This document shows positions 1,774 to 58,900 of a stretch of DNA of 64,000 nucleotides, one piece after another; the first letter of the stretch is position 1, and the number at the start of each line of letters is the position of its first letter. Source of the DNA: Atractiella rhizophila. Lineage: Eukaryota. The position numbers were made by a program, and so were the translations under genes. Location: NCBI GenBank assembly GCA_021432655.1, contig MU271250.1, positions 1-64,000 of the forward strand, read 5' to 3'. The notes beneath the pieces are model-generated. The model saw nothing but the letters and a program-made list of their open reading frames with translations, was not told where the DNA came from and searched no databases.

Positions 1774-2573
1774 GATCTCCGTCTCAACAATGGCGAGCGA
1801 ATCAAGGAGGAACGAAGTTTTACTTGTGCCTAACCCATGGAAAGGTGGCGATAGCTTGAGCTTATAAGCGATGGAAGGCCTCTACAATAGTTTAGAAACG
1901 AGATAAGCGACGACAAAATTGTTCGCAGAACTTTATTGCTGAGTATTAGAAAAGTATTGTCACCCTGGTGGCAAATTTCGAGAAAAGAATATCGAATACG
2001 AGCGCAGGCTCAGGCCAAGGGAAATTAGCCTGTTGATTCGTGCCGCGTCGCGAACAAGGAACGGGTCGTGGGGGGCTCTGAATCGTGAACGGTTACTTTC
2101 ACACGAACAACAAGCGTTCTTGCCACCTTACTTGCAGCCCTCCAAAAGCAAGAGGAATGGGAGTACACGACGAAAAGACGATCGGCGAGATCGGCACGGG
2201 GCCTTCCCTTTCATGATACCCGCTGAGAAAGCGAAACGAAGCGGTAGCTTGAACAGAAGGAAGTCATAAACACGCTTGACACGTCACGTGTGTAGAAGAA
2301 TCCAACCATTGGACGGAACCTTCCACCACTTCTCTTCTCAAACAGTGGAATCCAGTTATTTTTGCCACCTGAGAACCTAGAAGCTTCGCCTAGCGGTTTT
2401 AAGCTAAGCGAGACGACGTCCAAGCTTTATTCGCAAGACGGTACTAATGTCAAGCGGGTAGAATAAAGAGAGGAATAACAAACAAAACTCACACCGTAAC
2501 GTAGAGGAGGTCTCTCCAACCAGTTCCCCAAAACGCATATACTGATGTCATATGACGGACCATCCCCCTCATA

Positions 2574-10954: not shown

Positions 10955-11445
10955 TGTTAGGGCTGACAGTATGTGCGGTCGCCGATGGGCGATGCGTCTG
11001 TAGTGGAGGTAAACCTAAGTGAATAGTATGGCATGAGAAGACTAACCTGTAGTGGAGGTAAACCTAAGAGAATACTCTGAGATTACCACCACTACATCTC
11101 GATGTATATATACCATATGTAAAGGCACTGCCATAAACTGTAACATACATTTCTTGAAAAATGTAAGATAGCTAGATCAGGAAAGCAATAAAGGGAATAC
11201 TCGGAAATAAGACATACTCAGCAGTACAAGTGAGAAAGGATAATAAGGCAATAATGGCGACGGTGCAGACCGGCGAAATGTATGAGGTTAGCTGAGCGGC
11301 GATTCGTGTGAGATGGGGGAAGGCGGCGGTCAGCGCAAACATGCGCAAAGCGGCGACAGGTAGGCACGTGATCCTACGACGTACTAAAGTAGGTCATGTG
11401 ACATCAAATGGTGCATTTCGGTAATGCGTAGGGGCAAGCCTGACA
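10955..11445 (-). repeat. Gypsy 5' LTR (491 bp, TG...CA)
   Basis: Sense strand TGTCAGGC...CCCTAACA. Homologous copies start at 23781, 28785, 33898, 34468 and 49355. Confidence 0.95.
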
Positions 11446-23321: not shown

Positions 23322-24033
23322 TCATAATTCTGAGTGCCTCATCATCAAAGTCTGCCTGATTTGCCTACTCCTCAAACTTGATGATGTTGGACTCCAGGTT
23401 GCCCTTCTGTTGCAGGGAAGACAGTTTTGTTTGCGCAATAAGTTTGTGGTCAGTTTTGCAAAAACATGATCTGAACTCCGACAAAAATTGCTCCCACAAA
23501 ATCTCTTCCTCATTTCGACAAGTCGGCGCAGTATCCCAGCGGCGAATTTTTCAGTGTCTCCTTCTTTCATATACAATAGAGTAAATAAAATTTTTGACTT
23601 TTCTGAAGGGAACTGTCACGAGGTCTTGTTTGATTTTTTTGAACCGCTTTTCGGTTGTGTAGAGTTTGGAACATTCTTTCTAAGTGCAAGATGCATTCTT
23701 TGCTCGTCGGCAGTTCATGCATTTCCATATCTCCTCAAACCTCCGACATTTTTTTCTGAAAAGTAAAGGGAGTATTCTTCTGTTAGGGCTGACACTATGT
23801 GCGGTCGCCGATTGGCGATGCGTCTGTAGTGGAGGTAAACCTAAGTGAATAGTATGGCATGAGAAGACTAACCTGTAGTGGAGGTAAACCTAAGTGAATA
23901 GTATGGCATGAGAAGACTAACCTGTAGTGGAGGTAAACCTAAGAGAATACTCTGAGGTCACCACCACTACATCTCGATGTATATATACATATGTAAGGGC
24001 ACTGCCATAAACTGTAACATATGTTGCTTGAAA
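23322..24033 (-). mobile_element. Gypsy fragment: truncated LTR (23781-24033), PBS and internally deleted gag
   Basis: High similarity to 10150-11160. YMKEGDTEKFAAGILRRLVE. The LTR has three 22-nt repeats, at 23824, 23873 and 23922. Confidence 0.9.
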
Positions 24034-26641
24034 TAACTCGTAAAGGGGTTTGATCGAGTTGTCGAATCGAGGTTGGAAAGTGTGGTGGAATGGAGAGCAG
24101 CAACATTCGCCGCATAGTCAACAGGTAGGAAACATTCAGCAATTGAAGCAGGGGATTCAAGAAAACGAAGAAAATTTTGAGGAAGGTTGAAAGGAACAAA
24201 TTTTGATATGGTAAGAGGAAGGCAATTTCGAATCCAAGACAAATTAGAAGAAAATTTCGGCTGATCATATACGGATGGAGTAGAAATTGTTAAACTAGGC
24301 AGAAGAGAATTATTAGTAGAAGCAAGGAGTGCAGAGGGAGAAGTGGAGGGCAGGATCTTTCCCGGGGTTGTATCGTGTTCTTCCATAAAATTGAGGTATT
24401 CCTGGTCTGAAATTTCTTGCAATGCCCTGTCAAAAGACATGTCGCCATTCGGGGCATACTGTACATGGGTGTGAAAATGAGGATCATTTGAAGGCACTGG
24501 GTTGTCATGGGAGAATAGTGGAAGAAAGAGTGGGTGGATGTCAAGGTCTGGATGCTGAGCCGGGAGAGGAACAGGCCAGCGTCGTTGTTCATAAGCAACC
24601 TGGACGTAGGATGGCCAGTAGGACAGGTCACCATTGTGGATGATCTTTCCATCAAGGTTTCCATCGTACCGCCCATCAGGTCCAGGGCTAAAAATGTCGT
24701 TGGCCGCGCGGGGAATGCCGTCACTATTGAGTTCGTTTGGAGATGCAAAAGCCGGGCTGGCAATCAACACCGAAGGGTGGACATATTGAGATCGACCGGA
24801 GGAGTTAGGTTGAAGAGTAATACCCATCGCCTCGAAGGCAGCATCACCGGTTTTCTCTCGCTGTATAACTGGTACTCGGCAACTGGAAGATATGTGTCCT
24901 ATACCAAGGCAGTATACACATTGATTTGGCTGTACAATAAAATGACCCGACGGCGAGATAGATCCTGGCCAGGAGTCAATCCCGTCGTAGTCCCACGCCC
25001 GGCGGCCAAATACACGGGTCCCTGGATGACCGTAAACTCGCCTTGCGAGATGATACGTCTTCCCAAAGTGTCGCAAAGTAGGAGGCCGAACCGACCAAGG
25101 TCGGTTATACATCGGAGCGACTGGGGGGGTAGAAACGAGGATACGTGGTAGTGAAGTAGTTGCCAAGGAGGGTCGATAAGGAGGTGTAGATGGGTGCCTC
25201 AATGTGGGAGTCTGGCTTCGCAGTGTTGCAGATGACGCAGGTGGAAAATGACGAGCAGAGGATGGGGAAAAACGTATCGGCTGGGAGGAAGGTGGCATTG
25301 ACAAAGATCGAGACTGAGAAGGAAATACAGCATATACACTTGTGTCTCTCTAAAAATGCATGGGGATAGCAGGGTCTCCATGCTCTAGAACAGTGTTCGT
25401 TACATCTTCCGCTTTCAGTTTCTGAAAAAGATCGTTTAGATCATTCCTGGTGACATTCTTTGGATTGAGTGCAAACTTCCTCCATTCAGGTTCAAGGAGG
25501 TTAACGAAGAGGAGGAAGCGGACTGCATCGGACAGAGTGTAAGCAGAGTCTGCAGAGAGTAGTTCCGCATAAATCGCGTTCCATTTGGTGATGAACTGCG
25601 CCAAGGACGTGCATCCAGATCCACTTTGATAAAATGTGATCAATTTGGCTATAATCGTGTGACCCATAACGGCCTGCATTGTGCTGTATAGTGCCTGCAT
25701 CCTTGCGACGATGGAGCTAGCAACACGCTTTTCTTCTTCAGAAAGCTGATTCACAGCCGTGAGGTCCAAATTCGCAAGGACTATAGCCACAGCCTTGGCG
25801 TTCCCAGCTTCCCAACATTCCATAGCGTCCTCCCATTGTGACAAATTGCTGAAAGTGTTACGCAAAGGTTGAGTACGGCGAAAGTCCTCTGTCCCAACCA
25901 GCTCGTCCAATGCATAGCGGTAAACCATACGGACCTGGAGACCCATTCTCATCGCCGCCCACCAACTGGTAAAACCCACCCTTAGAATAGAAGGCACTCC
26001 ATCAATAATAAGTCCCGTCGTCCCAGCCGAAGATTCCATATCGATTGTCCGAAAAGAGTGTGGAGGTGATGAGGTGTTTGATGAAGGGATTAAAAACTCG
26101 GTCGTATTTGATAGGGCAGTGGTGCATGTAGGGGAGGATCTCTGTCATCAAATGGTGTGAGGTATCGAGAAGACATGTACAATCAGTACACTTCGTAGTG
26201 TTGTTACAAGAATTCGCAATGGGCAGCGTTAAACCCAATACTGGACAATCGAGGAGATACTTGTGGCTAACAGATGACTCTCACTACCATGTTAGCTGAT
26301 CCCCAGCGAATATGAGATGGTGGAAAACACTGGGAAATCAGGGCGGAGAAAAACCTAACCCTATGTACATACTGTGAGCTGCAGTACCATTTTGCTCCAA
26401 AATAGTTGAATTTAGCAGAGCTGCTAGAATTCGATTGAGGAAAAGGTAAAATTGAGTGGAATGCGTCGGTGAGGTTCCGAGGAGGATCCTGGAAGTGTCT
26501 GGTCGTTACCAAACCTGCAACGCCAGTAGCTAGCATGCTCGTCGCAAAAAAAGGTGACTGTACCCCATCATTGAAAAGAATTAGCAATATCCAGGTACAA
26601 CGGAAAAGTAACCACAAGGAACACGGACAGTAGTTTCCACA
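24034..26641 (-). mobile_element. Ty1/Copia fragment: 5' LTR (about 26290-26641), iMet-type PBS and gag region, truncated before the protease
   Basis: PBS TGGTAGTGAGAG at 26278-26289. Gag is similar to 57415-58704 (IDGVPSILRVGFTSWW vs IDNVPPISRVGFERWW). Knuckle CVYCLGIGHISSSC. The outer LTR boundary is uncertain. Confidence 0.8.
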
Positions 26642-26699
26642 AATCCACGAATTCCAGTAGTCACCAGTTCTCGAGGTCCGTCGCGACGTGCTTTCGTAT

Positions 26700-27511
26700 G
26701 GATGCCAGCCCTGACTGGTGGCGCATTGACACCAACATCAACATCGACGCCACCGTCTTGGTGGCTTCCTCTTCTTCCTATGCTTCGGTTTCTTTGATTT
26801 GGACTTACGTGGATTAGATCCTGCTTTCAGCTGAACGTTCAATCCACGATGCTTGGAACGGCGCTCAATTCAATTCAGTTCGCGCATGCCCCCCGACAAA
26901 ATGCATCGGATCGAATGAACGAATGGAGAGCGGGGGAAAGCAAGACCCACTTCTTCCATGCATAACCGGGACTGGGAGTAGGTCGCACCATCGAAGTTTA
27001 TAAAACTGTGATGATTTTTCCAGTGTTGACTACAACGCCATTTAGCTTAGCTTTCCACATCGACCTTGAAGAGCGGGAGAGAGAGATAGACCAGTGGTGC
27101 GGATCGTAGTAGATGCTGCGCCATTCCGGACCAATATATGAGCCATAAACTGTAACGTCATGCACGGGCCAGAGGTAGCGCAGCAGGGATAACGAAATCG
27201 TGGTGGTGGCGACCGTAGGTACCAACCTGATTAATGAGGAAATCCAGCATAGTAAGGAACATGGAAGTCGAACTTCTTCAACTGATCTGCATGTATGACA
27301 GCTGGCATCGTCGGTTTCTGATTCGAGGTGTAGCCAAGTCGGGCCTTCGGAATGGAACCCAACTTGTGGTTCTCTGCAGTATCAAATTCAGTGGCTTCGC
27401 TTCGACAGGAGATCCTTGCTCTTTCGGAGGCGGAAGAAGTTGGCAGAGCCGCCCCAACTGAAGAAGAAGCGAAGAGGGAGAGGAGGAGGAGGAGCTAAAT
27501 AGTTCCAGCAT
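26700..27511 (-). pseudogene. Possible decayed secreted-protein gene
   Basis: A signal-peptide-like LLLLLSLFASSSVGAALP is out of frame with the ATG at 27511. Confidence 0.25.
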
Positions 27512-28107
27512 GGTGATATTAGCAAGTCAACCACTTCGAAAGGCTCGGTTCGATGTGTAAATGGTCGTGATTTCGTCGATCTGCTCGGCAGATAAAGGAG
27601 GAATTGAGGTCACAAGAAATAGAACAGGCAAGCGCAAGAGTTGTTAGACATCAAGGTCCTCAGTTTATCATCTATGGCAGGGAACAGGCATTGAGATGCA
27701 CTAAAAGACCAATAAGCCTTGAAGGAGGACATGAAGGAGCTCCTACTCTGTCAAAGAGAAGGGGGAAATCGAGAGATCTTTTTGATTGTTGCACCAGGCA
27801 GGCTGGGAAAAAGAGAAAAGACTTTGAGAGGAACGTGAGTTTTATATCCCATTGGCACGCCCCTTTCTGTGATCACAACAAATTCTAGCTTCGACTCAGG
27901 TCGATTCTAGGTTGGGAATGTATGAATTGGATCTGAGACATTTATGAGAACACGAAAACTCCACAAGAGAAAGCTGAGAGGAGCTCTGATATAAAGAATG
28001 GCAGTCTTGTTGATCCTCCTATAATATTTAGGAGGTTTTATCCGAAACTCAAGGACATGGCAGTCGACTCAACATGATGTAAAACAGGATGTAAACCTGA
28101 TGGACTG

Positions 28108-28560
28108 ATGCATACAAATATCGACACCCAAGAGTTGTGGCTTCCATACCTTGAGAGTGGCTGGTCCATCAAGTGTAAATTCTTTCCAATTATCGTCCAC
28201 GCCGTCCCCACCTCATTCGACATCAATTCTAAGGAAGAGGTTCGAAGACGTATCGAACCTTTCAACCTCAACCTATACAAACACATCACCAAAATAAGCT
28301 GGTGCTGCACCAAGAAGATGACTACCACTCCCTCAAAAAGGTTCAAAACCCACTCCTCCCTCATCATTGCCCTCGACCACAACTCGGTAGCTGACGCACT
28401 CATCGAATTCGGTCTCATCATTGACGGGAAAGCCACTGTGGAAAAGTCCATCCGAGATGTCCTAAGACAAGTGTGTCAGTGCCCTCGTTGCTCGGACATC
28501 CCCCTGCCAAGGACTTCGCCCATTGGACCCCAGCCTCCAGCAGCCACTGCGTGGAGCTCT
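28108..28560 (+). mobile_element. LINE (Tad1-like) ORF1 fragment
   Basis: IIVHAVPT...KTHSSLIIAL...ADALIEFGLIIDG...VEK followed by decayed Cys knuckles. Confidence 0.65.
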
Positions 28561-29116
28561 TGCCTCCGGCAGCCAAGCACAGACCCATCATACATACTCT
28601 ACTGTGTTCAAAAAACAATGAAAGCTGAGTGGTCTCCAAGGTACGAGGAGAACCACTTCAGCTTTTGACTATATATACTGTTAGGAACATGCTGAGAGAT
28701 AATCAGTGATTGAGTACTCATAACACTTCCTTGTAAACTACATTATCTGTTTGCTTTCTTCTCCTTGCTTTGTTTTGACCAATATGTCAGGCTTGCCCTA
28801 CACATTACCGAAATACACCATCCGAAGTCACGTGATCCACTTTACCACGTCATGGCATCACGTGCCTCCCAATCGCTGCTTTGCTGCCTGCGCTGTTCGC
28901 CGCTTTCCCCTTTCTCACACGAATCGCCGCTCAGCAAACCTTATACATTTCTCCGGTCTGCGCCGTCTCCATTTTCGCCTTATTGTCCTTTCTCACTGGT
29001 ACTACCCAGTATATCCTATTTCCGAGTATTCCCTTTATTGCTTTCCGGATCTAGCTATCTTATGTGTTTCAAGAAACATATGTTACAGTTTATGGCAGTG
29101 CCTTTACATATGTATA

Positions 29117-29399
29117 TCCTATACTCTAAGGTTCATCAGTTCTTGACATGAGTCATAAGACACACTTTTGAGCCCTCACACCTCCCTCACCATACACAAT
29201 AGAATGAAATGTATTGTATCATCATATCCCACATGCTTGCCCCTTTCTGAACCTGCAAGGAAATTTTATTCTGAAAGGGTTGAAAAATGTGTTTTGTACT
29301 GGACTCGAACCCTTACAACGGTCACAGTAGGGTTCAAGGGGCCATGCCCCTTGCGAGTGGGTTGGGGGGCCTGAGGGACAAAGGCTGTTCACACACTTG
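29117..29399 (+). mobile_element. Non-autonomous mini-Helitron (283 bp)
   Basis: Inserted between A and T of the LTR TATA with no TSD, and removing it restores CATATGTATATATACATC. It has 5' TC, 3' CTTG (a CTRR variant) and GC-rich hairpins near the 3' end. Confidence 0.7.
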
Positions 29400-29486
29400 T
29401 ATACATCAAGATGTAGTGGTGGTGACCTCAGAGTATTCTCTTAGGTTTACCTCCACTACAGGTTAGTCTTCTCATGCCATACTATT

Positions 29487-29775
29487 TGTGAGAGAGGGAC
29501 ATACCACATGACTCCGTTTTACTTTGTCATTTTCCTTCCCTTCGCTCGTTTCTCTCGCTTTGTTCATGTTCATTCCCTTCGCTCGTTCCTCTCGTTTCGT
29601 TTCCCTCTCTCTTTCTTGATCTCCACTCTTCGGCACGTGTACATAGGGTTAGGACCATCGCCAACCTGATTCCCCAGCGTTTCCACCATCTCATTTCGCT
29701 GGGGATCAGGTACGTAGCTTCATTTCATGTCATTGAGCGTTTCCACCATCTCATTTCGCTGGGGATCAGCTCACA
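29487..29775 (+). mobile_element. Copia-type solo LTR (289 bp)
   Basis: TGTGAG...CTCACA ends and TSD CTATT. The 3' part matches the LTR of the Copia fragment at 26290. Confidence 0.88.
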
Positions 29776-30879
29776 CTATTCACTTAGGTTTACCTCCACT
29801 ACAGACGCATTGCCCATCGGCGACCGCACATAGTGTTTGCCCTAACACAATACTTGTAAATTGTTCGCATTTGAAACCCGTGAAAGACCAATATAAAGCT
29901 GCCCATGAGAGAAAGGAGAAGACTCTAAGTACAAACTTACATGTCCAACAGATTGTCCTTGTACTTTATTCAGAGTTAAGGCAAATGCTAAGGGCACAGG
30001 GAAGTGAAAGCACCAGAATTGAAAAGGAAGCTGGTTTGATACTGCACTGTCAATGCTGATTCGAGGAATGAGAACCGATTCGCTGTGCGCACCTGTAACG
30101 ATGGTTGCTTCAATGACTCGCCAGAGAAGCTGAGTGACAATGAACCATGTGCCATTGCACTGGCCAGCAGATGGATTGAGATTTCGCAGAAGAATGATGG
30201 GTACACTGGTCTTGAGGTGTAAGCAATACGAAGAGAATCCAGAGATCTCCGGGGTATTCAGGTACTCGACAGAGAAGCGATTTCTAAGATCTTCCTCGTC
30301 ATCTATAATTTGATCTGCACTATAATATACCGGATCTCCTGTGGATTCAGGCCACTGAATCAAGTGATCATTGATGCCATCCATATCCACATTCTTTGCT
30401 GCTGGAATCATGCGAACCTGGAAGTATTCTTGAAGGAAGCTCAGAGCAGGGATATTTTGCAGAGAATCTAGTTGGCCGTAAATTGAGCACAACAGACCAT
30501 CTAGTCCTTCGTGGGATGGAATAATAGACCCATCTGGTATCTTTAAGGTTCCACATCCATTGTCTGATGGATTATTAGCGAGACCATTTCCAACATTAAG
30601 GAGCCACTGGGCAAATCTGGTTACATGCTGAAATTTGGCTGGTGTCAATTCCTGTTGGCCTTGAAGAAGGCACATATTGGTTTTCAAAGGCAGGACTTGA
30701 ACATTCGGCCAGAAGTTAGAATTAATGGGCATCTTCAATCTGTGGTCAGGTTCCATTTGGAACTACCGGAAGACATTGTCTGCCATCTCCTGTGAACAGT
30801 ATGTTAATAAAGAACTACTTAAAGGGAAGTATCGTACCACAGAAAACCATGGGTGCTCCTCCAAATGGTCTTGAATCCT

Positions 30880-31800
30880 TTTTAAGAGGAGGTGTGGTTA
30901 GTGCAATTTCACTCAAAATGTCCCTAGTCGATAGGTTATCGACACAGGTGTAGAGGGGGTATGGTCAGTGCAATTTAGCTCCAAATGTCCTAATCTATAG
31001 CTCATCACCAAAGGTAGCTAATGAGGATGTGGAGACAAAGTTCATATATACATGCAATTTCCATATGAATGATATATCACCCCCACAGAGATACTGTAGC
31101 TCCATATGCTTGACCTGATAAAATGTTCCTGCAAACCACCCTCATCATTGCATGTTTTACATTCTTGCTCACACTCATGTTACATTTACTGGTAGATGTA
31201 AAAATCACTAAGGGTTTAGAATATAGCGTAACATGCGCCTGTCTTCATGTAAAATGTTTCAGCAATGATATTATTTATTGGCACTAAAATCATTATTGAT
31301 CATCTGTTTATCATCATCTTTGACCATAATGATTCAAAACAAGCTCTTTAATAGGTCACATCTGTTAAATCATTCTTAACACATTTCATTTTAATGGTAT
31401 TACTATTTTATATGGATTCATCATCTTGATCATTGGTCATACATTCAAGTTTGTGTGTACATCAAAATGATTCTACACAATTCAGCCCCTTGCTTGCTTA
31501 AGAATACATCTGATGCATGCACTACTTTCAGCAGGGTATCAATCTATCCATGTCCGTAGCCAATCTTAAGCGGCTGCATGGCTGAGTTTCATTTTGGTTC
31601 TCAGTCCCATCTTCACCAGGTGTCAATAACCTATCGACATGGGCCACTCTCAACAAAATTGCACCCCTCATACCCGCTCTCCCTGGTGTTGATAACTTAT
31701 CAACATGGGCCAGTTTCAACAAAATTGCTCTCCTCAAACCCCTCTATGACTGTTGTCAATAACCTATCGATCTGGCGCAGTTTTGGCAAAATTGCACTTA
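30880..31800. repeat. Fold-back arrangement of degenerate ~60-bp repeats around an AT-rich core
   Basis: GTCGATAGGTTATCGACAC and GTGCAATTT at about 30900-30980 are inverted relative to GTGTCAATAACCTATCGAC and AAATTGCAC units at about 31620-31800. Confidence 0.55.
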
Positions 31801-32019
31801 TTGTTAATAACGTATAGAGAACACATTGTCTAAACTGTTATAAATTAATTTTGCAACTTTTTTAATTGGAGATATATGCTAAATATGAACCAGAGCTGTC
31901 CAATGAAGCCAGGATTTCAATGGATAAGTGATTTAAGATGTGTCTTAGAGAGGACATTGCCTGGGCCTGCAAGTGTTTATATGTACATGACATTTTGACT
32001 GGATTGCTGTTCATATCTG

Positions 32020-34467: not shown

Positions 34468-34956
34468 TGTTAGGGCTGACACTATGTGCGGTCGCCAATA
34501 GGCGATGCGTCTGTAGTGGAGGTAAACCTAAGTGAATAGTATGGCATGAGGAGACTAACCTGTAGTGGAGGTAAACCTAAGAGAATACTCTGAGGTCACC
34601 ACCACTACATCTCGATGTATATATACATATGTAAGGGCACTGCCATAAACTGTAACATACGTTTCTTGAAACATGTAAGATAGCTAGATCAGGAAAGCAA
34701 CAAAGGAAATACTCGGAATTAAGGCATACTGAGCAGTACAAGTGAGAAAGGACAATAAAGCAATAATAGAGACGGTGCAGACCGGCGAAATGTGTAAGGT
34801 TTGCTGAGCGGCGATTCATGTGAGATAGGGAAAGCGGCGATCAGCGCGAACGTGAGCAAAGCGGCGATGGGGAGGCACGTGATCCTTCGACGTGATGAAA
34901 TAGGTCACGTGACTTCAAATGGTGCGTTTCGATAATGCGTAGGGGCAAGCCTGACA
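34468..34956 (-). mobile_element. Gypsy solo LTR (489 bp)
   Basis: TG...CA ends and TSD GCCTA. Collinear with 10955-11445. Confidence 0.95.
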
Positions 34957-39618: not shown

Positions 39619-42600
39619 ATGAGCAAAATCCCCAATCCGGCAGCCTCCGGAGGACACGATGTCGTCCGCTCCGCCCTCGATGCCTGTAGTACGGCACTTC
39701 GATATGCCACGTCAATCTCATGTGTTGCCCCTGTTCCCGGACTCTCTGCCGGTCTCGGCGCTCTACAGACGCTGGTTACTCAACTTCAGGTAGAGTCTTC
39801 TGTTCCTGCTTCGATGATAATTTAGCGAGTTTGTTCACCGCGACATCTTGTTTCGCAGACAATGAAGGACAATAACGAAAGACGGGACGTCTTTGTCCGT
39901 CATATCGCGCAACTGGTACAACTGATATCAAACTCAATTCAAGAGATCGAGAGAGACTCGAAACTGCAATTTTCCCCGAGTCTTTCGAAAGCTATGGACG
40001 AACTTACACAGTGAGTGCTATCGTGGGTTCAAAACCTTGATTTATACTTATGTGTCTTAACCCATTAGGGACGTTAACGCAATGATCGCGGACGTAGAAA
40101 AGATGAAACGTCAAGGAGCAGCCAAGCGGTTTTGCAAATCAAGTCAGAACGCCGCAAAATTGACTGAGCTGACGGGGAGAATTAACCATGCAATGAGTAG
40201 ATTTAGCGTAAGCAAAAGCTCTCGCCCAGCTTTATATAAAACACATCTCATTAACTCTGAATATCTAGGTTCGGGGAAGTATCACTGTGGAAGCACATGT
40301 GCTCGCTATAGCAGAGAGACAGATTACTCAGCGTAAGGATGATTTGACGCACAATACGAGAAATCCCTGACTGATCAAATTCTTATTACAGTTGAGAAAG
40401 AGAACGAATGGCGCCAACAGGAGGCTGTTCGGCGAAAACAAAAGGAAGAAGAAAAGCATCGAAAGCATGAAGAAGAAATCTTACAGAAACTACCTCAGGA
40501 GGAAGTTGGGTACCGGTCGGCCCTCAATATTGTCACCCACGGGGTTCATCCAGCTACCCGAATAGAAGTACTGCAAAAGGTATCTGGCTGGGCCGATTCC
40601 ATCGACGCCATCGAAAAGATGTACATCCTCACCGGTGCCTTTGGTACTGGCAAATCCGCCATCGCCTACACCGTCGCCGAAACCCTCGAAAATCAAAACA
40701 AACTAGGAGGTTCTTACTTCTTCTGCAGGGACAATGTTGGGTCCTTGAATATCCAGAACTTCGTTGGACCGATCGCCCGCCAGCTTGCCAACTCGATCCC
40801 AGCCGTACGCCACCACATCGTTGAAGCCATAGAAGAACGCAAAAGCGCTGGTCCATTCACCCTTGCTGAAGACTTCAGGCATCTCATTATCGAACCCCTT
40901 TCCAAAGTTTCCGGGTATCAAACTCCGGTAATTATTGTTGTGGATGCGCTCGACGAATGCCCCGAACGTGAAGGGGTAAAGGAACTCTTCCAACTCATTT
41001 CTGCTTCGCTACCTAAACTGAACTTTCCTCTCAAGTTCTTCCTCACCGGACGTCCAGAGTCCCACCGTGACTTTACGGAGCTAAGCTCTTGTATCCTTCA
41101 CGAGCTGAAGAAGGAAGTTGTGGATATGGACATTCGGACTGTCTTAGTCGATGGTCTTGAAAAGGTCGCCATCGAGAACAAGTGTGCCGGGATGGAGCAC
41201 CCTCCTACGACGATCAATAACCTCGTCAATAAAGCTCAAGGTCTTTTCATTTTCATCGATACTTTGATCAGGCATCTGTTGGAAGATGACCCTATTCCAT
41301 GGGAGACAAAGCTCCAAGAAATATTGGAGTTGCCAAGTGAAGATGGTTCACAAATAGATCTTCTCGATGGTCTGTACCACAAAGTTCTCTCCGCCGTGCT
41401 AGATTGCTCAAAGTCCCAGAAGATCCAAGACAGGAATCGCAACATCATTCTTCAAGTTCTTGGCTTCGTCATCATGCTTTACGAACCCCTCTCCCCGACA
41501 TCGCTGGCCCATCTCATCTCATACGACACACCCAAGACGATGCAAACGGCCAAGAACGTGAGGCTTGTCCTTCATCGTCTTAGCTCCGTCATTCTCGTCC
41601 CCAAGGAGAACCACGACCTCATTCGTACTCTTCATGCATCCTTCGTCAATTACATTACCGATCCTACGCGGTGTTCCGACTCCAAGTTATTTGTCGACCC
41701 AGCGCTTTATCATATTCGAATTGCATCTTCGTGCTTGGACTTCCTTCACGATAACCTAAAGCGCAATATCTTAAACCTTCCTGATCCCTGCATCCTCAAC
41801 TCTGAAATTCCCAACCTCCCCGACCTCATCCACCAACTTATCCCTCCTCACCTTCAATACGCCTGTACACATGGCCTATCGCATCTCGCGAATATCACCA
41901 ATCCTTCCCCCGAACTGCTCAAAAAGGTTTCCAAGTTTGCCGAAGAACACGTTATACACTTTTTGGAAGTCATGAGCCTACTGAAAAGGGTTGGCATCGC
42001 TGTCCGGGTTCTTGGGACTGTACTCAAGTGGTACCAGGTGAGAGCTGTGCCAAACGAACCGCACACTTCGTCGATACTGATCATCCATTTTTGCACCACA
42101 GAACCTTGTCACGGAGGGAGACTCTCGAGTTACCTCGCTCCTATCTGACAGCTGCCGCTTTGTGGGTCGTTTCTCCGAGGTGATCAGTGCCTCCGCAGGT
42201 CATATCTACCTCTCAGCTTTAACCCTATCCCCGGAGTGTACCCTTCGTACGACCTACTTGACTCCTCCTTGGGGTTCAGTCAAAGTAGTTCGTGGACGGG
42301 AGGAGTCATGGGACGCTTGCTGGAACAACGTTGTTAAAGGAGCTCCATGCACCGCATTAACCTATTCACCCGACTCCATCAAGATCGCCGCAGGCTCCGA
42401 CGATCAGACAGTCAGGATATGGGATGCAGCCACCGGTAAGCAGCTTCATGTTCTCCGTGGCCATTCCGGATGGGTCCGCGCCGTTGCGTTCTCTGCAGAC
42501 GGACAGCAGGTTGCCTCTGGCGCTTCCGATTCTGCAATCCGTATATGGGATACAGAGAAGGGCCAGTGTCTAAACGTCCTTCGGGGACATACGGGCTGGG

Positions 42601-44306
42601 TCCACACCGTCGCCTTCTCTCCCAACGGGGAGTTCATCGTTTCGGGGTCGCAAGATCATACGGTGAGGATCTGGAATGCGACTACAGGAGAACAACTCAA
42701 AGTCCTCCAAGGCCATACCGACTATCTTCGTGCCGTAACTTTCTCTCCAGACGGAGCACGAGTCGCCTCCGGCGCCTCCGATATGACGGTCAGAATCTGG
42801 GATGTACCGACAGGAGAACAACTAACCGTCCTCCAATGCCAATCCGACTTCATTCGCGCAATATGCTTCTCGAACGATGGAACCAAAGTCGCCCTCGCTT
42901 CTGATGACAAGACAGTCCAAGTCTGGAACGTTTCCACCCAAGAACAACTTCATGTCCTTCGTGGCCATTCAGATGCCGTTCGCGGTGTATGCTTCTCTCC
43001 CAACGGAGATAAGATTGTCTCTGGAGCTGACGATAAGACGGTCCGCGTGTGGGATGTAGCCACGGGCGAGCAGCTCAAACTCATCTCAGGCCATACTGGC
43101 TGGATTCATGCCGTCGCCTACTCGCCCGACGGAGCCACAATTACATCGAGTTCGGAAGACCAGACCATTAAGACCTGGGACGCCCTCACCGGCCAGCATC
43201 TCAAGACCCTCGAAAGCGACTCCGAACTTCTTTCCACTTATGCAACGAAGGATATCCCCAAACCCTCTGACCCTCCATCACAAGCACCCGAGGTCGCCGT
43301 GAAACCACAACCCAACGCCCTCCAAGGACACTCGGACTTCGTTCGAGCCGTATCCTTCTCCCCCGATGGATCCAAGGTGGCGACAGGTTCTTTCGATTCT
43401 ACGGTCAGAATCTGGGATGCTGTCACCGGGGACCAACTGAGCATTCTTCGCGGACATACGAATTTCGTTCGCGCGGTACGGTTCTCGCCAGATGGAACGA
43501 AGGTGGGATCTGGCTCCGACGACAAGACAGCGCGTATCTGGGATATTGCCACCGGAGAGTATCTTGAGCTCAAAGATCACGAAAACGACGTTCGCGCCGT
43601 AGCCTTTTCTCCTAATGGATGGAAGTTTGCTACAGGTTCAGACGACAAGACGATCCGCATCTGGAACGTTGTCGAGGGGAAGCTGCTTGTAACCCTTTCC
43701 GGTCATACTGGTTGGGTTCAGGCAGTATCGTTCTCTCCCGACGGAGCAAGGCTGGCGTCGGGGTCCTCGGACTTGACCCTCCGGATATGGGATTTAAAGA
43801 CCGAAGAATGCCTCAATGTTCTCCAAGGGCACTCTGGCTGGATCCTCGCGGTAAGCTTCTCTCCGAAAGGAGACGTCGTTGCTTCCGGATCTTCCGACAA
43901 GACGGTACGCCTGTGGGATGCTGCGACGGGAAAAGGACTCAAGGTTCTTCAAGGTCACACCCATTGGCTCTCCACCTTATCCTTCTCCGCCGAAGGATCT
44001 ACGCTGACTTCCGAAGATACGGGTGGTCATACCATCCGATGGAATGTGGAGCATGGTATTGAAGTGACGGAAGATAACCGAAAACTCATTCAGCCTTCAC
44101 CTCACGTTTCCCTAAATAACTCTCTTCTCTTTTGTTCGCTGAAAAGTGATGGACCCGACGGTACCTTTGCTATTCGATCTCACTCTAGTCAACTCCTTTT
44201 CCTCCTTCCTCCCTCGGTTCATCGGGTATCTCATTCTATTTCTCTGGACCATAGTACTCTTGCCGTTGGATCCCGCTCAGGGCAACTATACATATTTTGT
44301 ATTTAA
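39619..44306 (+). CDS. Intact fungal NLR: MLKL/HeLo-like helical N-terminus, NACHT and WD40 (HET-E/NWD-like)
   Basis: Five GT-AG introns splice in frame. P-loop GAFGTGKS, Walker B IIVVDALDEC, FFLTGRPE, LHASF, and 13 clear WD repeats. Confidence 0.92.
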
Positions 44307-48010: not shown

Positions 48011-49354
48011 TTATCCTTTCATGCAAAAAAGGAGCAGAAGCAGTTTCCCAGAGCTGGCAGACATCAGGAAGCCCGGAAGCCATCTCCCATTCCAAGGAAT
48101 CACTCACATCCAAGCCAGATGTGAGGAAAGTGAAGATGTGGGAAAGGAGCTCGATAGGCACGCGTGAGATGTAGCATACACCGGAAGGTGGGGGAAGCGA
48201 GAGTTGAATAATAATCTGCTTTGATGTGCAGGAGCCAGGTATAGGGGTTCATCGACGTCATAGATGGGGATGCAGTGGTAGTTGTAGTTGTAGTTGTTGT
48301 TGTATTTAGCGACATGGGCGAAGATGGAGTCAGAATGGTCTGCTGGCATAGGAAACGTACCAGTGAAGCATGGTTGCAGATCATCCGAATAGTGTGAGGA
48401 AGGGTAAGATTCTGGCTGTTCGGCTTTGCCAAAAGTTAAAGAGTGTCATCTTCAATGTTAGGACGTATGACATAGTTGAAGGTGATGCAGAGTGGACGAA
48501 TCGGAGGCAGTAGGCTAGATAGAAAATGTAAGATGTGAGCCATGAGTCAGTCCGTCCTGATTCTATCTTTCTACCTTTCTCGTCTGCTTTTCTCATTTGT
48601 CCTTTTCGAACAACCACCAGTTCAAAACCCTCTTGTGTGGTTTTTCCTTCTCTTGGTTTGCGTTCACCGTACAGTTACTGTGTCCCTTTTGCTGCCCTCC
48701 TTACAGGTTCCCTTCAGTCCAGTCACAGTTGTGCCTCGTTTCTCTACCTTTGCGTTACAAGAAGGCTAGACACCGGAAAGTGAGTCTCCTTCGTTTCTTG
48801 TCTTGTTGATCATTCTTATTCTGTTGAAAGCCGACTCTGACCTTTGGGGACTGCTGCTGTTTTTAATATCCTTGGCTTCTGGTGTCTAGGTATGTTCTTG
48901 TATCTTATTGCTGTCCACCAATACTTCATGCATTGCAATGTCTAGCTAACTACCCCTAAATGTGCACGAGAAGTGTACGAATGCACCCGCCCGATCGTCA
49001 GCTTAGATGTGAAGGAGAAAGCAAGAAACAGCTATCAGGTCATCATTGCGGTGTCACAAGAGGAAACTCGGAAGGTTGAGCGGCCTTCATGAACCGTGAC
49101 AACCAGGATTGTGAGGATGAAGGGGAAGGCTGCTCAGGCTGAGCTGTCATGAGATTGCGGGTGTGATGTTGTCTAGCTGCTGGGAGGATAGAAGGGAAAC
49201 GTCCAGACGTTGGAACTAGCACGACGAATATAATCGACTCTGCGGCCAGAATATCGGGCCGCAGAGGTAAGTAAAAGACCAGAAAAATAAAGTTTCTAGT
49301 CCTGGTCTAAGGGCGGACAGGAGTTCAAAATTAGCATTGGCAGCCACGATTAAC

Positions 49355-50942
49355 TGTCAGGCTTGCCCCTACGTATTACCGAAATGCACCATCTGAAGTC
49401 ACATGACCCACTCTACCACAGCATGGCATCACGTGCCTACCTGTCACCGCTTTGCTCATACCCACGCTGTCCGCCGCTTTCCCCTTTCTCATACGAATCG
49501 CCGCTCAACAAACCTTATACATTTCGCTGGTCTGCACCATCCCCATTTTCGCCTTATCATCCTTTCTCACTAGTACTGCTCAGTATATCTTATTTCCGAG
49601 TATTCCCTTTATTGCTTTCCTGTTCTAGTTATCTTACATGTTCAAGAAACATACATTACAGTTTATGGCAGTGCCTTTACATATGTATATATACATCAAG
49701 ATGTAGTGATGGTGACCTTAGAGTATTCTCTTAGGTTTACCTCCACTACAGACGCATCGCCCATCAGCGACTGCACATAGTGACAGCCCTAACAGAAGAA
49801 TTCTCTTTCTCCTTTTCAAAATCAAACTTAAAAATGTTGGAGGTTTGGGGAGATATGGAAATGCGCGAACTGCCAACAAGTGAAGAACGCATCCATCACT
49901 TGGAAAAGATGTTCAAGACCTCATAACAAGTTTCAACCAACAAAATATGCCAACCTCCCAGAATGCGAACGAGATTGCGCAACTGAGGTCCGACGTTCAA
50001 AACATAAACGACCGAATTTTACATTTACTGGACTCCAGACTACCCCCTCCTAGGGACAGTGGAACCACTTCCCCCTTTATATCACGAACAGACCCAATAC
50101 CTCAAACTTACTCTCCCCATCTATACCTCAAACTGCCCAAGCAGCACCATATGCAGGTATCACACTTGCTCCACCTTCAATCTTCAAAGGAGTGCCTAAC
50201 ACAGCTCTGACATTTTTATGGGAAATTTACGTCTACACCTCTACTGTTCTAGGCCAATTCCCGACCAAAAAATCAAAAATCCTATTTACCCTCTCTTACA
50301 TGAAAGAAGGCAATGCGGAAAATTTCCCCGCTGGGATTTTGCGCCGGCTTGTCAAAAACAAGGAACAAATTTCGTGGGAACAATTGTTGTCGGAGTTCAA
50401 TCACACTTCTGCAAAACAGACCACAAACTTATTGCACAGACGAAACTGTCTTCCCTCCAGCAAAAGGGAATCCTAGAATCCTACATCATCAAGTTTGAAG
50501 AATTGGCAAACCAGACTGACTTTGATGATGAGGCTCTTATTTTCTTCTAGAAACGAGGACTCAATCCTGCCCTACATCTTAAAGTAACCCAAGGAGAGTT
50601 CCCGAAATCGCTAGAAGAATGGAAAGAAAAACCTCAGCAAATTGATGCGGAAGAATCTGCACATTCAACCTTCTTTCAAAACATCCCACTGGTGAAAGAC
50701 GGGCCCCAAAATACGTTTTCCGCAAAGAGAGACAGCTCGAAATTGACAAAACACAGAGAGAGCAGAACACCCATATTGTATCGACCAAGTGCCGCTTTGC
50801 CGCCAATGGCCAATCCGTCACCAAACGTTGCTACACACTCACAGAGCCAAAGACCCTGATGACATGGAAGGTGATGCAACAAAATCTAGACCCCCCCATT
50901 GCAGGCCATGCCAAAAGATGGGACACCGGGAAAGAGATTGTC
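49355..50942 (+). mobile_element. Gypsy fragment: LTR (49355-49794), decayed PBS and frameshifted gag
   Basis: Same family as 9622-11445. This LTR has only one 22-nt repeat (49730-49751). Confidence 0.92.
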
Positions 50943-52296: not shown

Positions 52297-55200
52297 TGTG
52301 CGCTGGACCTGGTCCACAGCGGATGGTGGTCAAATCGCTGTGGAACCAGAACATAACCTAACCCCTAAGTGTAGAATGGAGGGGACCGAGTGAACCAGAG
52401 AGCTCATGCTCTCACACCCCCCCTCACTCGGTGCCCAAAGAAACCAGCACCAGAAAACCCCAAAAGTAAAGTAGAATGATGGTGAAGTATTAATGAGAAG
52501 CAGACACCCTGTATTGAAAGTAAACGAAAGACCAATTCAACTGGATAGCAAAGAAGTGTCAATACGGGAAGGTAACGAACTAGAATGGTAATGAAATTTA
52601 ACAAATCTGACAGCACAAATGAACGTGACTATCTATGTATGATGTATATCAATCCATTCAGGAATCCAGTAATCCTAAGTGAGAGCATAATTTCCAGTGT
52701 TGCAAGTGCGATATGCCCTTCGTCATCACATGCCCTATCATCTCCTGTTTTGGTATCCACGTCAGTACCACCTCACCTTTATTGACTCTTTCGCAGGTAA
52801 AATGATAGTGAACGTCAACATGTTTCGTCCTGCTGTGGTTAGAAGGGTGTTTGGCCAAAGTGAGGGCTCCTTGGTTGTTGCCTTTGATCGTCGTAGGTGC
52901 ATTCTGAGGGAAACCTAGCTCAGTCAGCAACGCCCGTAACAAAATAGCCTCTCTGGCTGCCGATGATAGTGCTATGTATTCTGCTTCCGTATATGAGATC
53001 GCTACGGTCGGTTGCATCTTGGATATCCAAGAAATCGCAGATCTCCCCAGTCTGAACACAATCCCTGAGATTGATCTCCTGGAATCAACATCAGACGCAT
53101 GGTCGGAATCAGAGAAGCCTTCTATTGAAGTGGAGCCTGTACTGTCCCAAATCAGTCTAAAATGCAAAGTTGCAGCAAGATATCTGAAGATCCTCTGCAC
53201 ATATGCCCAATGTCAACGACCAGGATTTGAGTTGAATCGAGCTGCATGATTGACCGCGAACAGTATGTCTGGTCTGGTGTTTACTGCCACATATATCAGT
53301 GCCCCAACTGCCTCTCTGTACGGCTTCTTCTGCATGTACTCACGTTCTTCATCTGAATCAGGCGCCCAATCTTTCAATACCTTCTCATCTACATCGCAGG
53401 GAGTCTTGACGTGACTGCAATCAGTCATACGAAAACGCTCAAGACACTTCTTGATGTAACTCTCCTGATCTAAAGCTACAATGCTGTTAGTCTCGTCCCA
53501 AACTATCCTCATCCCCAAGAAGTTACCAACGGAAGACGTGGTGATCCTGAACTTTGGCCGAAGTAAATCGAACAATATGCCAATCAAGTTGCGGGACGAA
53601 GCAGCAACCAATCCGTCATCTACATGAAGGCAGATGATCGTCACCTCTTCCCCCGCCTTCTTGATATACACCCCATGATCCGCGTCGGTCCTGACATAGC
53701 CGTGTCGCATAAGGAAGGTGTGAAGCGTGTCGTTCCAACCCTTTCCTGCCTGTCGTAGTCTGTAAAGTGTTTTTCGCAACCTGAACACTTTCGAAGGCGA
53801 ATCGGGTCCGCAAACATTTGAGGCTGCTGTAAGTACACTTCCTCCTTCAAATCCCCATGGAGGAATGCATTGCTGACATCAAATTGTGCGAACGCCCATC
53901 ATTGCGATGCGGCGAGGGAAAGAACAGTACGAACCGAGGACATATGGACAGTAGGAGCATATGTCTCCTTGAAATCTTGCCTTGCCACCTGTCTGTCGCC
54001 TCTCGCAACGAGCCTCGCTTTATATTTGACGATATTGCCATCTAAGTCCCTTTTTATCAGTAAAACCCACTTACATCCTATTGAGCACTTTCCATGCGGC
54101 AACTCAACCAAATCGTCTTCCCAAGTCCCCACGGCGCAAAGAGGAGCCATCTCCGCTTGAATCACAGTCCACCACTCATCTGCATGAGGCCCACCTAACG
54201 CCTGTTTAAACGTAGGCTCATCTAAATTACTGTTCCACCCTACTCCTGTCGCGAATACTTCCCATTTCCTTACACCAATCCTATTATCTGTGAGCGCTGA
54301 TTGGTTCGAGGCCCTCAAAGCTGCATTCATCTCCCTTGCAGCAACTGATGGATTGAAATCTCGTAAGCCTGGCTGGAAGTGTGCGTTGAGATGGAAAGCC
54401 AATGGGCGTCTCAAAGTAGACAGAGGTTGCAGCGTATGTGGTTGTGGGTGTTGAAGACCGGATCTATCCCCTAGAGTGTTGTCAGGTTGTGGAAGACCAC
54501 TGTTCAAAGCCCGATAATCGATCCTAGGGATATCCCGCCTGGTGCGCAAGGGTAATGGGTAAGGATTAGGAGAGTGGTTCGGAACCCTCTTACGAGGGAT
54601 GCGAGTCCGTGGGAGGGGTGGTTGCTCGTCACTAGCTTTTGGTGTTTCTCGGCCATCGCCATCGTCATGTCCGCTTGTCTGCCCTGCAGGCGATAAGTCT
54701 ATCGGTGGATAGAGCGGTCTAACTGATGGATCAGATGTAGGTTGCATCCTCACCATTTCTATGGGAGGTGGTATTATCGCATTCGTATCTGGTATTCGGA
54801 CAGGAACATTGTCAGCAAGGTAATCAAAATCCGAGGGCATGAACTCGTTAAGCGACCAGCTGGTCAATTTTACCGTTTCCTCCTCCTGCCTGTCCTTGTA
54901 AAATTGATCTTCAAACCACTTTACCTCCTTCGATTCCACAAAGCGCCTCTGTTGCGGGACCCAGAATAACCACCCCTTCTTCCCTTCCAAGTACCCAACG
55001 AAGTACCCCAAGATCCCTCTTGCATGAAGCTTCGAGATCTGTTTTTCTTTGGGGACATGTATAACTGCAAGACATCCAAAAGTACGGAGGTGCGATACAT
55101 CCGGCGTTTTCCCAGTCCATGATGATTCCAGACATTTCCACGACCCATGCGAGAACATCGGAAGACGATTAAGTGTGTAGACTGCAAACTGCACTGCTTT

Positions 55201-58200: not shown

Positions 58201-58900
58201 CTTCTGACGGATAAATCCATCCTCCGGTCTTTGATCAAGGCAATATCGATAAACTTTGAGACTCTTGAGCCCCGGGACGATCGCTTTCCACCAGCGTTCG
58301 AATCCAACTCTCGAAATTGGAGGTACATTGTCAATGACATGGTTTCCACCACCGCCATACATAGGCATTCCCGGTCCCTCCATTGGGGTATAAGAAGAAG
58401 AAGAAGATGCGGACGTAGTCAAAGGTTCAGTCGCTGTAGAAATGGCTGGAGAAGGAAAACATGTCAGTGATGGTTCGTCAGGTACGTTGAGATTTAGCTG
58501 ATTGTTGATATGAGGAGGTTGATCATGGCCGTCCAATGGAGTGGGGTACCGTTGTGACATCGGAAGAGAGGATGAAAAAAAATGATTATCAGGATGGATC
58601 CGGATTCCTATCCGGCTCTCGCCATCATGTGCGCTGGACCTGGTCCACAGCGGATGGTGGTCAAATCGCTGTATACAATGCAATGAACTCCCTACCTGGT
58701 CCACAGCGGATGGTGGTCAAATCACTGTGGAACCAGAACATGACCCTAACCCTAAGTGTAGTCCATTGTACATCTGTTAGGCTTATCACTGATAAAATGT
58801 ATATTTATTAATTTTATAGTACCTAAAAGCTTTAGGAGTTTCCAGCATATAGTGGAAGAATGGAGGGGACCGAGTGAACCAGAGAGCTCATGCTCTCACA
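52297..58900 (-). mobile_element. Full-length but decayed Ty1/Copia element (LTRs 58628-58900 and 52297-52416)
   Basis: Gag, PR VDSAATVSM, WHARLGH...CTSC, IN VRSDNGGEF, RT LHVDD and RH FSDSDHA. PBS TGATGGCGAGAG, PPT at 52417-52427, TSD TAGGC/AAGGC (4 of 5 match). Several frameshifts. Confidence 0.95.
58762..58856. mobile_element. 95-bp MITE-like insertion in the Copia 5' LTR
   Basis: Absent from the 3' LTR. Imperfect TIRs TCCATTGTA/TATAGTGGA, with the flanking AG duplicated. Confidence 0.5.

Follow-up and report, generated by a model that had tools for sequence, protein, structure and literature searches.

Positions 29487-29775 of the window, the 64,000-nucleotide stretch of Atractiella rhizophila contig MU271250.1 that was analysed here, are occupied by a dead solo long terminal repeat (LTR) of a Copia-type family, which is nested in a solo LTR of a Gypsy family (Table 1). 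The Copia-type element has the hallmarks of Ty1/Copia solo LTRs, namely TG...CA termini, a short inverted repeat and a 5-bp target duplication. DNA comparison within the window matches the host Gypsy LTR to copies at 10955-11445, 34468-34956 and 49354-49797, and these copies, together with one at 23624-24033, are uninterrupted and read CATACTATTCACTTAGG.

Contigs of the public runs X1, X2, X4 and X14 were aligned to positions 26000-30000 at 85% likeness, and gave 15 listed joints and 17 more. The joint from 29480 to 29775 skips 294 bases and is found in eight contigs of three runs (four in X1, three in X2 and one in X4). Since 294 is the sum of 289 and 5, and CTATT flanks the skip, the feature that these contigs pass over is the 289-bp solo LTR with its 5-bp target duplication. 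Another joint, from 28779 to 29848 with five shared letters, skips 1068 bases in contigs of X1 and X2, which indicates that the Gypsy solo LTR was itself inserted into another repeat. The original prediction had the LTR begin at 29638, where TGTACATA (29638-29645) is found; every part that it listed for the element was recovered, but the true start of the LTR is 29487.

The host Gypsy LTR also contains an insert of 283 bp that is missing from the other LTR copies. It resembles a small non-autonomous element with TA-rich junctions, and the joint without it (29116 to 29400) occurs in five, two and one contigs of three runs. Adjoining the Gypsy solo LTR is a fragment of a Pif1 helicase (ORF 29842-30762, minus strand; Pif1_2B_dom, E 1.3e-14), which may be part of a Helitron-like element.

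Table 1. Positions in the window of the solo LTR, its parts, its host and its Copia-type relatives
Feature	Position	Strand	Remarks
Host Gypsy-family solo LTR	28780..29850	+	Holds the Copia-type solo LTR and a 283-bp insert (29117-29399)
Target-site duplication CTATT, left copy, 5 bp	29482..29486		
Solo LTR, Copia-type family, 289 bp	29487..29775	+	Termini TGTGAG...CTCACA; empty sites in other Gypsy LTR copies
Older 37-nt tandem repeat in CT-rich U3 of solo LTR	29522..29601	+	2.2 copies, 32/37 identical (TRF)
TGTACATAGGGTTAGG, onset of similarity to the 26290 LTR	29638..29653	+	Putative start of R, from sequence comparison
Hairpin left arm CTGATTCCCCAGCG	29666..29679	+	One bulged T
Rep1 (A1), 34 nt	29676..29709	+	Last 4 nt of left arm, 17-nt loop with CCACCATC, right arm 1 (29697-29709); CAG end
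Spacer B, 26 nt	29710..29735	+	GTACGT start; its homologue in the Copia 5′ LTR has 25 nt
Rep2 (A2)	29736..29769	+	Second right arm (29757-29769), no left arm of its own; CAG end
3′ terminus of solo LTR, CTCACA	29770..29775	+	
Target-site duplication CTATT, right copy, 5 bp	29776..29780		
gag ORF of the 26290 element	25350..26039	-	250 nt downstream of its LTR
R-U5 part of 5′ LTR, related Copia-type element	26290..26369	-	One hairpin copy, no spacer; end CTAACA
3′ LTR of full Copia, 120 bp	52297..52416	-	Single hairpin copy, no spacer, without the 95-nt U3 block
5′ LTR of full Copia, 273 bp	58628..58900	-	A1 58696-58726, spacer 58671-58695 (GTAGGG start), A2 58640-58670, then GTCCAGCGCACA

The two 34-nt repeats of the solo LTR are identical at 34/34 positions with a start-to-start spacing of 60 in a direct-repeat search, and blastn recovers the pair with an E-value of 2.5e-12, so that the repetition is not a matter of chance. 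The original prediction described a 60-nt unit (29710-29769) that begins with GTACGT after Rep1 and ends in CAG before CTCACA, and each of these parts was located as described. Counted in monomers, the solo LTR and the 5′ LTR of a full Copia element in the window hold 1.57 each, and the LTR at 26290 and the 3′ LTR of the full Copia hold 0.57 each. The arrangement is that of a tandem repeat, in that the monomers stand head to tail and related copies differ by whole monomers. At least three repeats are found in none of the four LTRs of the window, a sample too small to argue against the tandem-repeat class. The second, older repeat in the U3 of the same LTR suggests that duplication is a general habit of this LTR.

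Copia-type relatives of the solo LTR

The only DNA relative that blastn finds for the solo LTR within the window is the segment at 26290-26369. No Gypsy match is returned by this comparison, which agrees with the earlier remark that the unit has no likeness to the Gypsy unit. The similarity amounts to 84% over 77 nt (29638-29712) and 95% over 37 nt (29740-29775), and both of these matches fall on one single copy at 26290; the relative therefore has one repeat and no spacer, and it lacks exactly the 60-nt unit, as had been claimed. Its CTAACA end is followed by TGGTAGTGAGAG and then, 250 nt further on, by an ORF. The PBS-like TGGTAG behind this LTR is left unmatched to a primer because no tRNA genes were found in the window.

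The assignment of the solo LTR to a Copia-type family rests on this relative and on the gag that it carries. The gag of the 26290 element is 42% identical (E 3e-51) to that of the full Copia, whose gag ORF lies upstream of ORFs with gag_pre-integrs, rve, SH3_retrovirus and RVT_2 domains (52658-56042). The next ORF, in the same frame as the 26290 gag, holds a CX2CX4HX4C knuckle, and the protein atlas lead for the 26290 gag ORF is a copia-type gag (0.91). Pfam gave no family for the gag ORFs at E ≤ 0.01 and noise alone at E ≤ 10. TGTGAGAG, TAGGGTTAGG, the hairpin and a ...CACA end are shared features of the LTRs of the full Copia. The family assignment of the original prediction is upheld through the 26290 relative and the likeness of its gag to that of an element with RVT_2 and rve; no full-length member of the solo LTR's own subfamily was found within the window.

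The gag frame of the 26290 element (23967-26144, minus strand) is 724 codons long and interrupted by a single in-frame stop (25350). It includes a CCHC knuckle, shows no protease, integrase or reverse transcriptase domain, and ends inside a Gypsy LTR fragment. To judge from its sequence, the element is gag-only or truncated.

The full Copia (52297-58900, minus strand) has the ends TGTGAGAGC...CAGCGCACA and the flanks GCCTT and GCCTA, which match at 4/5 bases, and a polypurine run, GAGGGGGGG, precedes its 3′ LTR. Its 5′ LTR is ordered as CTGGTTCCACAGTG-ATTTGACCACCATC-CGCTGTGGACCAG (the hairpin), GTAGGGAGTTCATTGCATTGTATAC (the 25-nt spacer that starts with GTA), AGCGATTTGACCACCATCCGCTGTGGACCAG (the repeated loop and right arm) and GTCCAGCGCACA, and the unit it carries measures 56 nt (58640-58695). 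A 95-nt U3 block of the 5′ LTR (58762-58856, minus strand), which includes TATAAAAT, is missing at 52373/52374 of the 3′ LTR. The ends of this block give no GT..AG in any register and have a 2-nt microhomology alone in common. Four further differences between the two LTRs are clustered in the middle of the LTR (92.6% identity over 68 nt, 100% at both ends). In the established model of reverse transcription, a single U5 template gives rise to both LTRs of a newly inserted element. Since the unit is present in the 5′ LTR and absent from the 3′ LTR, and one U5 template serves for both, the loss of the unit from this element is not the result of splicing. The asymmetry between the two LTRs could stem from gene conversion by another copy and not from simple deletion.

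A hairpin common to four LTRs and duplicated in part in two of them

No part of the Copia 5′ LTR is aligned with the solo LTR by blastn. Their spacers are identical at 19/27 positions, a score that is reached by 2 of 5000 shuffles, or by 19 of 5000 when the first three bases (GTA) are left out. The pattern TAGGGTTAGG...CCACCATC...CGCTGKGG has three matches in the window against none expected, all of them in these LTRs, and the motif TAGGGTTAGG is present in three of the four LTRs, the Copia 3′ LTR carrying one extra G. The A copies are identical at 34/34 positions within the solo LTR and at 30/31 within the Copia 5′ LTR; between the two lineages the figure is 24-25/34 (~72%). A homologous spacer, a common motif and identity of the repeats within each LTR together argue that within Copia the design was inherited and did not arise on two occasions. 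In each LTR, the pair of repeats evolves in concert.

The repeat is built around a hairpin of 13 pairs with one bulged T. All 52 of the 52 pair cells are paired in the alignment of the four LTRs; in two pairs both partners have been replaced (A-U by G-C, C-G by A-U), and three cells are U.G wobbles, which form pairs only on the sense strand as RNA. The CAG that terminates the repeat is the closing part of the stem and pairs with CTG. The solo LTR and the Copia 5′ LTR have the left arm once and the right arm twice. Folding of the solo region is more stable than that of shuffled sequences (z -3.7), which is not so for the regions of the Copia and of 26290 (z -0.41 and -0.42); the hairpin itself is present in all three folds. 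A search of Rfam over 26200-29900 at E ≤ 1 returned three matches at chance level, none of them near the unit.

Several other origins and partners were considered for the parts of the unit and rejected. A conserved helix between the start of R and the spacer is found in the fold of the solo LTR and missing from that of the Copia, and was dropped. Derivation of the spacer from a PBS or leader found no support, as the local alignment score was reached by 759 to 5000 of 5000 shuffles, and comparison of the spacer with the rest of the window gave chance matches of 12 nt or less only. The unit is also no tiny complete LTR element of the SMART-like kind outlined in the cited part of PMC3281118, as its 34-nt repeats have no TG..CA ends and its spacer has neither a PBS nor a polypurine tract.

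Tandem repeat, leader intron or two-state structure

The outward form of the unit is that of an intron, and it is possible, though unlikely, that a real spliceosomal intron lies wholly in the R-U5 leader, at 29710-29769 in the solo LTR and at 58640-58695 in the full Copia. Transcripts would then start near TGTACA and be spliced at CAG|GTACGT...CAG|CTCACA to give two leader isoforms, and reverse transcription of the spliced RNA would produce unit-less progeny such as the 26290 lineage. The fungal 5′ splice-site consensus is GTRNGT. The GTACGT of the solo unit (29710) fits this consensus, and the GTAGGG of the Copia unit (58695, minus strand) is a weaker match; GTA and the G at +5 are kept in both lineages. 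Both units end in CAG, and their lengths of 60 and 56 nt compare with 59-64 nt for the two host introns predicted in the window, GTGAGA...CTGAT...CAG at 42038-42101 (64 nt) and GTAAGT...CTCAT...TAG at 996-938 (minus strand). Near-matches alone to the branch-site motif CTRAY are found 10-40 nt before the 3′ site: the solo unit has CTCAT 19 nt upstream of the CAG, and the Copia unit has TTGAC 24 nt upstream of it. These stand at non-homologous positions, and the difference between the lineages counts against the intron. The position of the unit is favourable: the solo LTR has a CT-rich block upstream of it, and the Copia 5′ LTR has TATAAAAT, so that transcription of the unit is probable; the unit is also situated in a part that is conserved between subfamilies with differing upstream parts, as would fit a transcribed R-U5 leader. 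The intron-like boundaries on which the original prediction was built are therefore present, but they are less surprising than was claimed: at the 4-mer frequencies of the window itself, 0.14 of A-B-A repeats of such a size would have an AG|GT phase by chance. When GTRNG is also required, the chance expectation becomes 0.019 per repeat, before correction for the number of repeats inspected, and this lower figure speaks for the intron. The product of splicing would equal the natural unit-less leader. However, a 60-nt removal across a 34-nt repeat gives the same product at any of 35 phases, so that splicing, template switching and replication slippage are indistinguishable by their product, and the unit-less relative, which the original prediction took as a sign of splicing, loses its diagnostic value; repeat-mediated deletion yields the same sequence, and the Copia 3′ LTR has lost the unit without splicing. 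Moreover, the intron reading gives no reason for the identity of Rep2 to Rep1, and an efficiently spliced leader intron would be expected to vanish from progeny, whereas the unit persists in two lineages. It is quite improbable that a conserved spliceosomal intron lies entirely inside the LTR of a fungal Copia clade, with a 3′ half that copies the end of the upstream exon. If an LTR intron of this kind were real, splicing would recreate the intron-less leader exactly, intron loss by reverse transcription would be free of scars, and the two leader isoforms might, for instance, be translated in the one case and packaged in the other.

Convergence with a Gypsy unit under host selection, the broader claim of the original prediction, finds no support in a count of AGGT in the tandem repeats of the window. 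The count covered six repeat units of 23-66 nt, with the two Copia units, which are homologous, counted once. On the presumed sense strand, the solo unit, the Copia unit and the Gypsy 49-mer contain AGGT, as does one of the 66-mer's three copies. The 37-mer in the U3 of the solo LTR (29522-29601) has none on either strand and the 23-mer none on its plus strand, and the opposite strand carries AGGT in the 66-mer, the 23-mer and the Gypsy 49-mer. For one strand of the six units a count of 1.13 is expected, so that AGGT appears in several units and on either strand near expectation; there is no clear enrichment, in a sample far too small for a test of the hypothesis. The 49-mer belongs to a Gypsy LTR fragment (23824-23949) with 2.6 tandem copies at 98% matches, and it is presumably the Gypsy unit that had been meant. 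Its unit boundaries read CAG|GTTAGT on the sense strand of the LTR and also GAG|GTAAAC on the other strand, and its copy number varies among the Gypsy LTR copies.

Public RNA data bear on the site through one library. The site was matched by 24 public runs, none with half of the words, and the one RNA run among them is the root metatranscriptome X14 (share 0.08). A 151-nt contig of this run with four differences and a depth of 3.2 covers 29609-29749, passing from Rep1 over the GT and through the complete spacer as far as Rep2. It represents either unspliced RNA or DNA present in the library, and as the single RNA-library contig over the site, possibly of DNA origin, it counts against the intron. 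Of the 15 joints listed for the aligned contigs, none skips 60 nt. Logan contigs are built from 31-letter words; a repeat of 34 nt exceeds this length, and this result therefore carries no weight. Elsewhere, an X14 contig skips 61 nt at 27212-27272, without GT..AG ends on either strand. Many diverged contigs cover 26400-28400, and this skip resembles an indel between repeat copies and not an intron.

Another reading dispenses with splicing and holds that the duplication was selected as a two-state RNA structure, in which right arms 1 and 2 are alternative partners of the left arm; pairing with the first would form the local hairpin, and pairing with the second would leave the loop, arm 1 and the spacer looped out. 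The leader would switch in this way between functions such as translation and packaging, strand transfer or priming. One left arm and two right arms in both lineages, compensatory changes of the stem that are matched in both right arms of each LTR, and a spacer conserved at 19/27 positions are what such a switch would call for, and the design persists despite the instability that is expected of direct repeats in retroelements. However, the loops are also identical within an LTR and different between lineages, which points to homogenisation rather than to selection for pairing, and summed contig depth (26268-26803), though no measure of copy number, makes unit-less lineages such as 26290 multi-copy as well. 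The long-range helix between the R start and the spacer occurs in the solo fold and not in the Copia fold, and the whole case is drawn from four sequences. Selection for two states is rather doubtful, and neither it nor the leader intron excludes the tandem-repeat reading, with which both are compatible.

The reading that we prefer, at a probability of roughly 60%, is that the unit is a tandem repeat of variable copy number, built around a conserved hairpin in the leader of a fungal Copia clade, and that its GT..AG look is a by-product. The 60-nt unit would be the second, partial monomer of a short tandem repeat, each monomer consisting of the hairpin loop, the right arm and the 26-nt spacer, and the repeat would lie in the R-U5 end, presumably transcribed, of a Copia-type LTR. 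Copy number would rise and fall through switches of the reverse transcriptase between the 34-nt repeats of its template, or through replication slippage, and the stable hairpin probably promotes either event. One such process would yield unit-less LTRs and homogenise the repeats as well. The intron-like traits would follow from the same arrangement: CAG would be set by the stem, GTA would be the first three bases of the conserved spacer, and 56-60 nt would be the length of the monomer. The array is found in two diverged Copia lineages, and one-copy forms occur in both, once within a single element. Near-identity of the A copies within an LTR combined with divergence between lineages is a property of an expanding and contracting repeat, and is not required by the intron model. 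Some points weigh against the tandem-repeat reading, namely the 0.019 chance of GTRNG, the retention of GTA and of G at +5 in both lineages, and a length and a CAG end that look intron-like. Expansion also predicts copies with three repeats, which were seen in 0/4 LTRs, and template switching is a process that we infer. Finally, survival of an easily lost repeat in two lineages suggests some selective value, and the tandem-repeat reading names none.

Relation to known systems

Precedents exist for the processes that the tandem-repeat reading invokes. In an assay for direct-repeat deletion, a duplicated segment that has a 25-bp spacer collapses through template switching in the course of retroviral reverse transcription, according to the part of PMC6395001 cited here, and the cited parts of two further sources deal with template switching that creates complex LTR elements (PMC1950507) and with tandem repeats in LTR retrotransposons (PMC7004042). 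Like the direct repeats of LTRs, the design consists of a short repeat and a spacer, related copies differ by one repeat plus spacer, and the repeats are homogenised. Unlike them, its repeat is 34 nt only, includes half of a covarying hairpin and is situated at the R-U5 end, not among U3 enhancers; moreover, it is kept in two lineages that are ~28% diverged, and switching is here inferred.

Leaders of retroviral RNAs contain structured elements in R and U5, including TAR, the poly(A) hairpin and U5-leader stems, and in some retroviruses splice donors lie inside R. The Copia-type LTRs resemble these in that their terminal transcribed part contains a hairpin, stable and conserved, whose stem is directly followed by GT; they have no sequence or family relation to them.

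Host splicing of LTR-element RNA, which generates two RNA classes, has been described for Ogre, EVADE, BARE1 and Cer1 (PMC12786077; PMC3735527). The introns of these elements, in the passages cited, belong to the internal region, and a subgenomic gag RNA or another protein results from them; splicing has been shown there. None of them is described in those passages as lying wholly inside an LTR or as being bounded by repeats. A narrow literature search likewise brought up no intron described as contained entirely within an LTR, and we know of none. If spliced, the unit would be the first known intron of this kind, as far as that search goes; if it is merely a slippage-prone repeat, it represents ordinary length polymorphism of an LTR. 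In either case, the absence from a relative of a GT..AG segment bounded by repeats is no evidence of splicing, since repeat-mediated deletion leaves the same product.

Intron-dependent expression and a splicing-linked surveillance of transposons are known from Cryptococcus (PMC3744415; PMC5851062), and the pathway, as outlined in the cited parts, offers a possible reason for a fungal transposon to gain from an intron. Nothing in the window ties the LTR unit to Cryptococcus or to its surveillance pathway. The interest that is left attaches to a leader hairpin, conserved and covarying and with its right arm duplicated, in a fungal Copia clade. That hairpin and duplication were kept and homogenised across ~28% divergence hints at a role in the element's RNA or in its reverse-transcription steps.

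Searches for further members were made in public contig collections. The pattern TAGGGTTAGG..CCACCATC..CGCTGKGG had no matches in metagenomes, and alignment of gag revealed no relatives in viral_contigs (65 pattern matches) or in metagenome_contigs (162 pattern matches). The viral pattern CCACCATC..CGCTGKGGAYCAG gave two matches in phage contigs; both are without the left arm and the TAGGGTTAGG motif, and they were dismissed as chance.

Two further features of the window may be recorded. A gene with NACHT/NPHP3_N and WD40 domains, which are typical of fungal NLR-like proteins, occupies 40343-44306 on the plus strand, and its two frames are probably joined by the 64-nt intron at 42038-42101. 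The 66-nt tandem repeat included in the AGGT count is situated at 31616-31808 with 2.3 copies and 78% matches, and matching inverted copies are found at 30885-30945.
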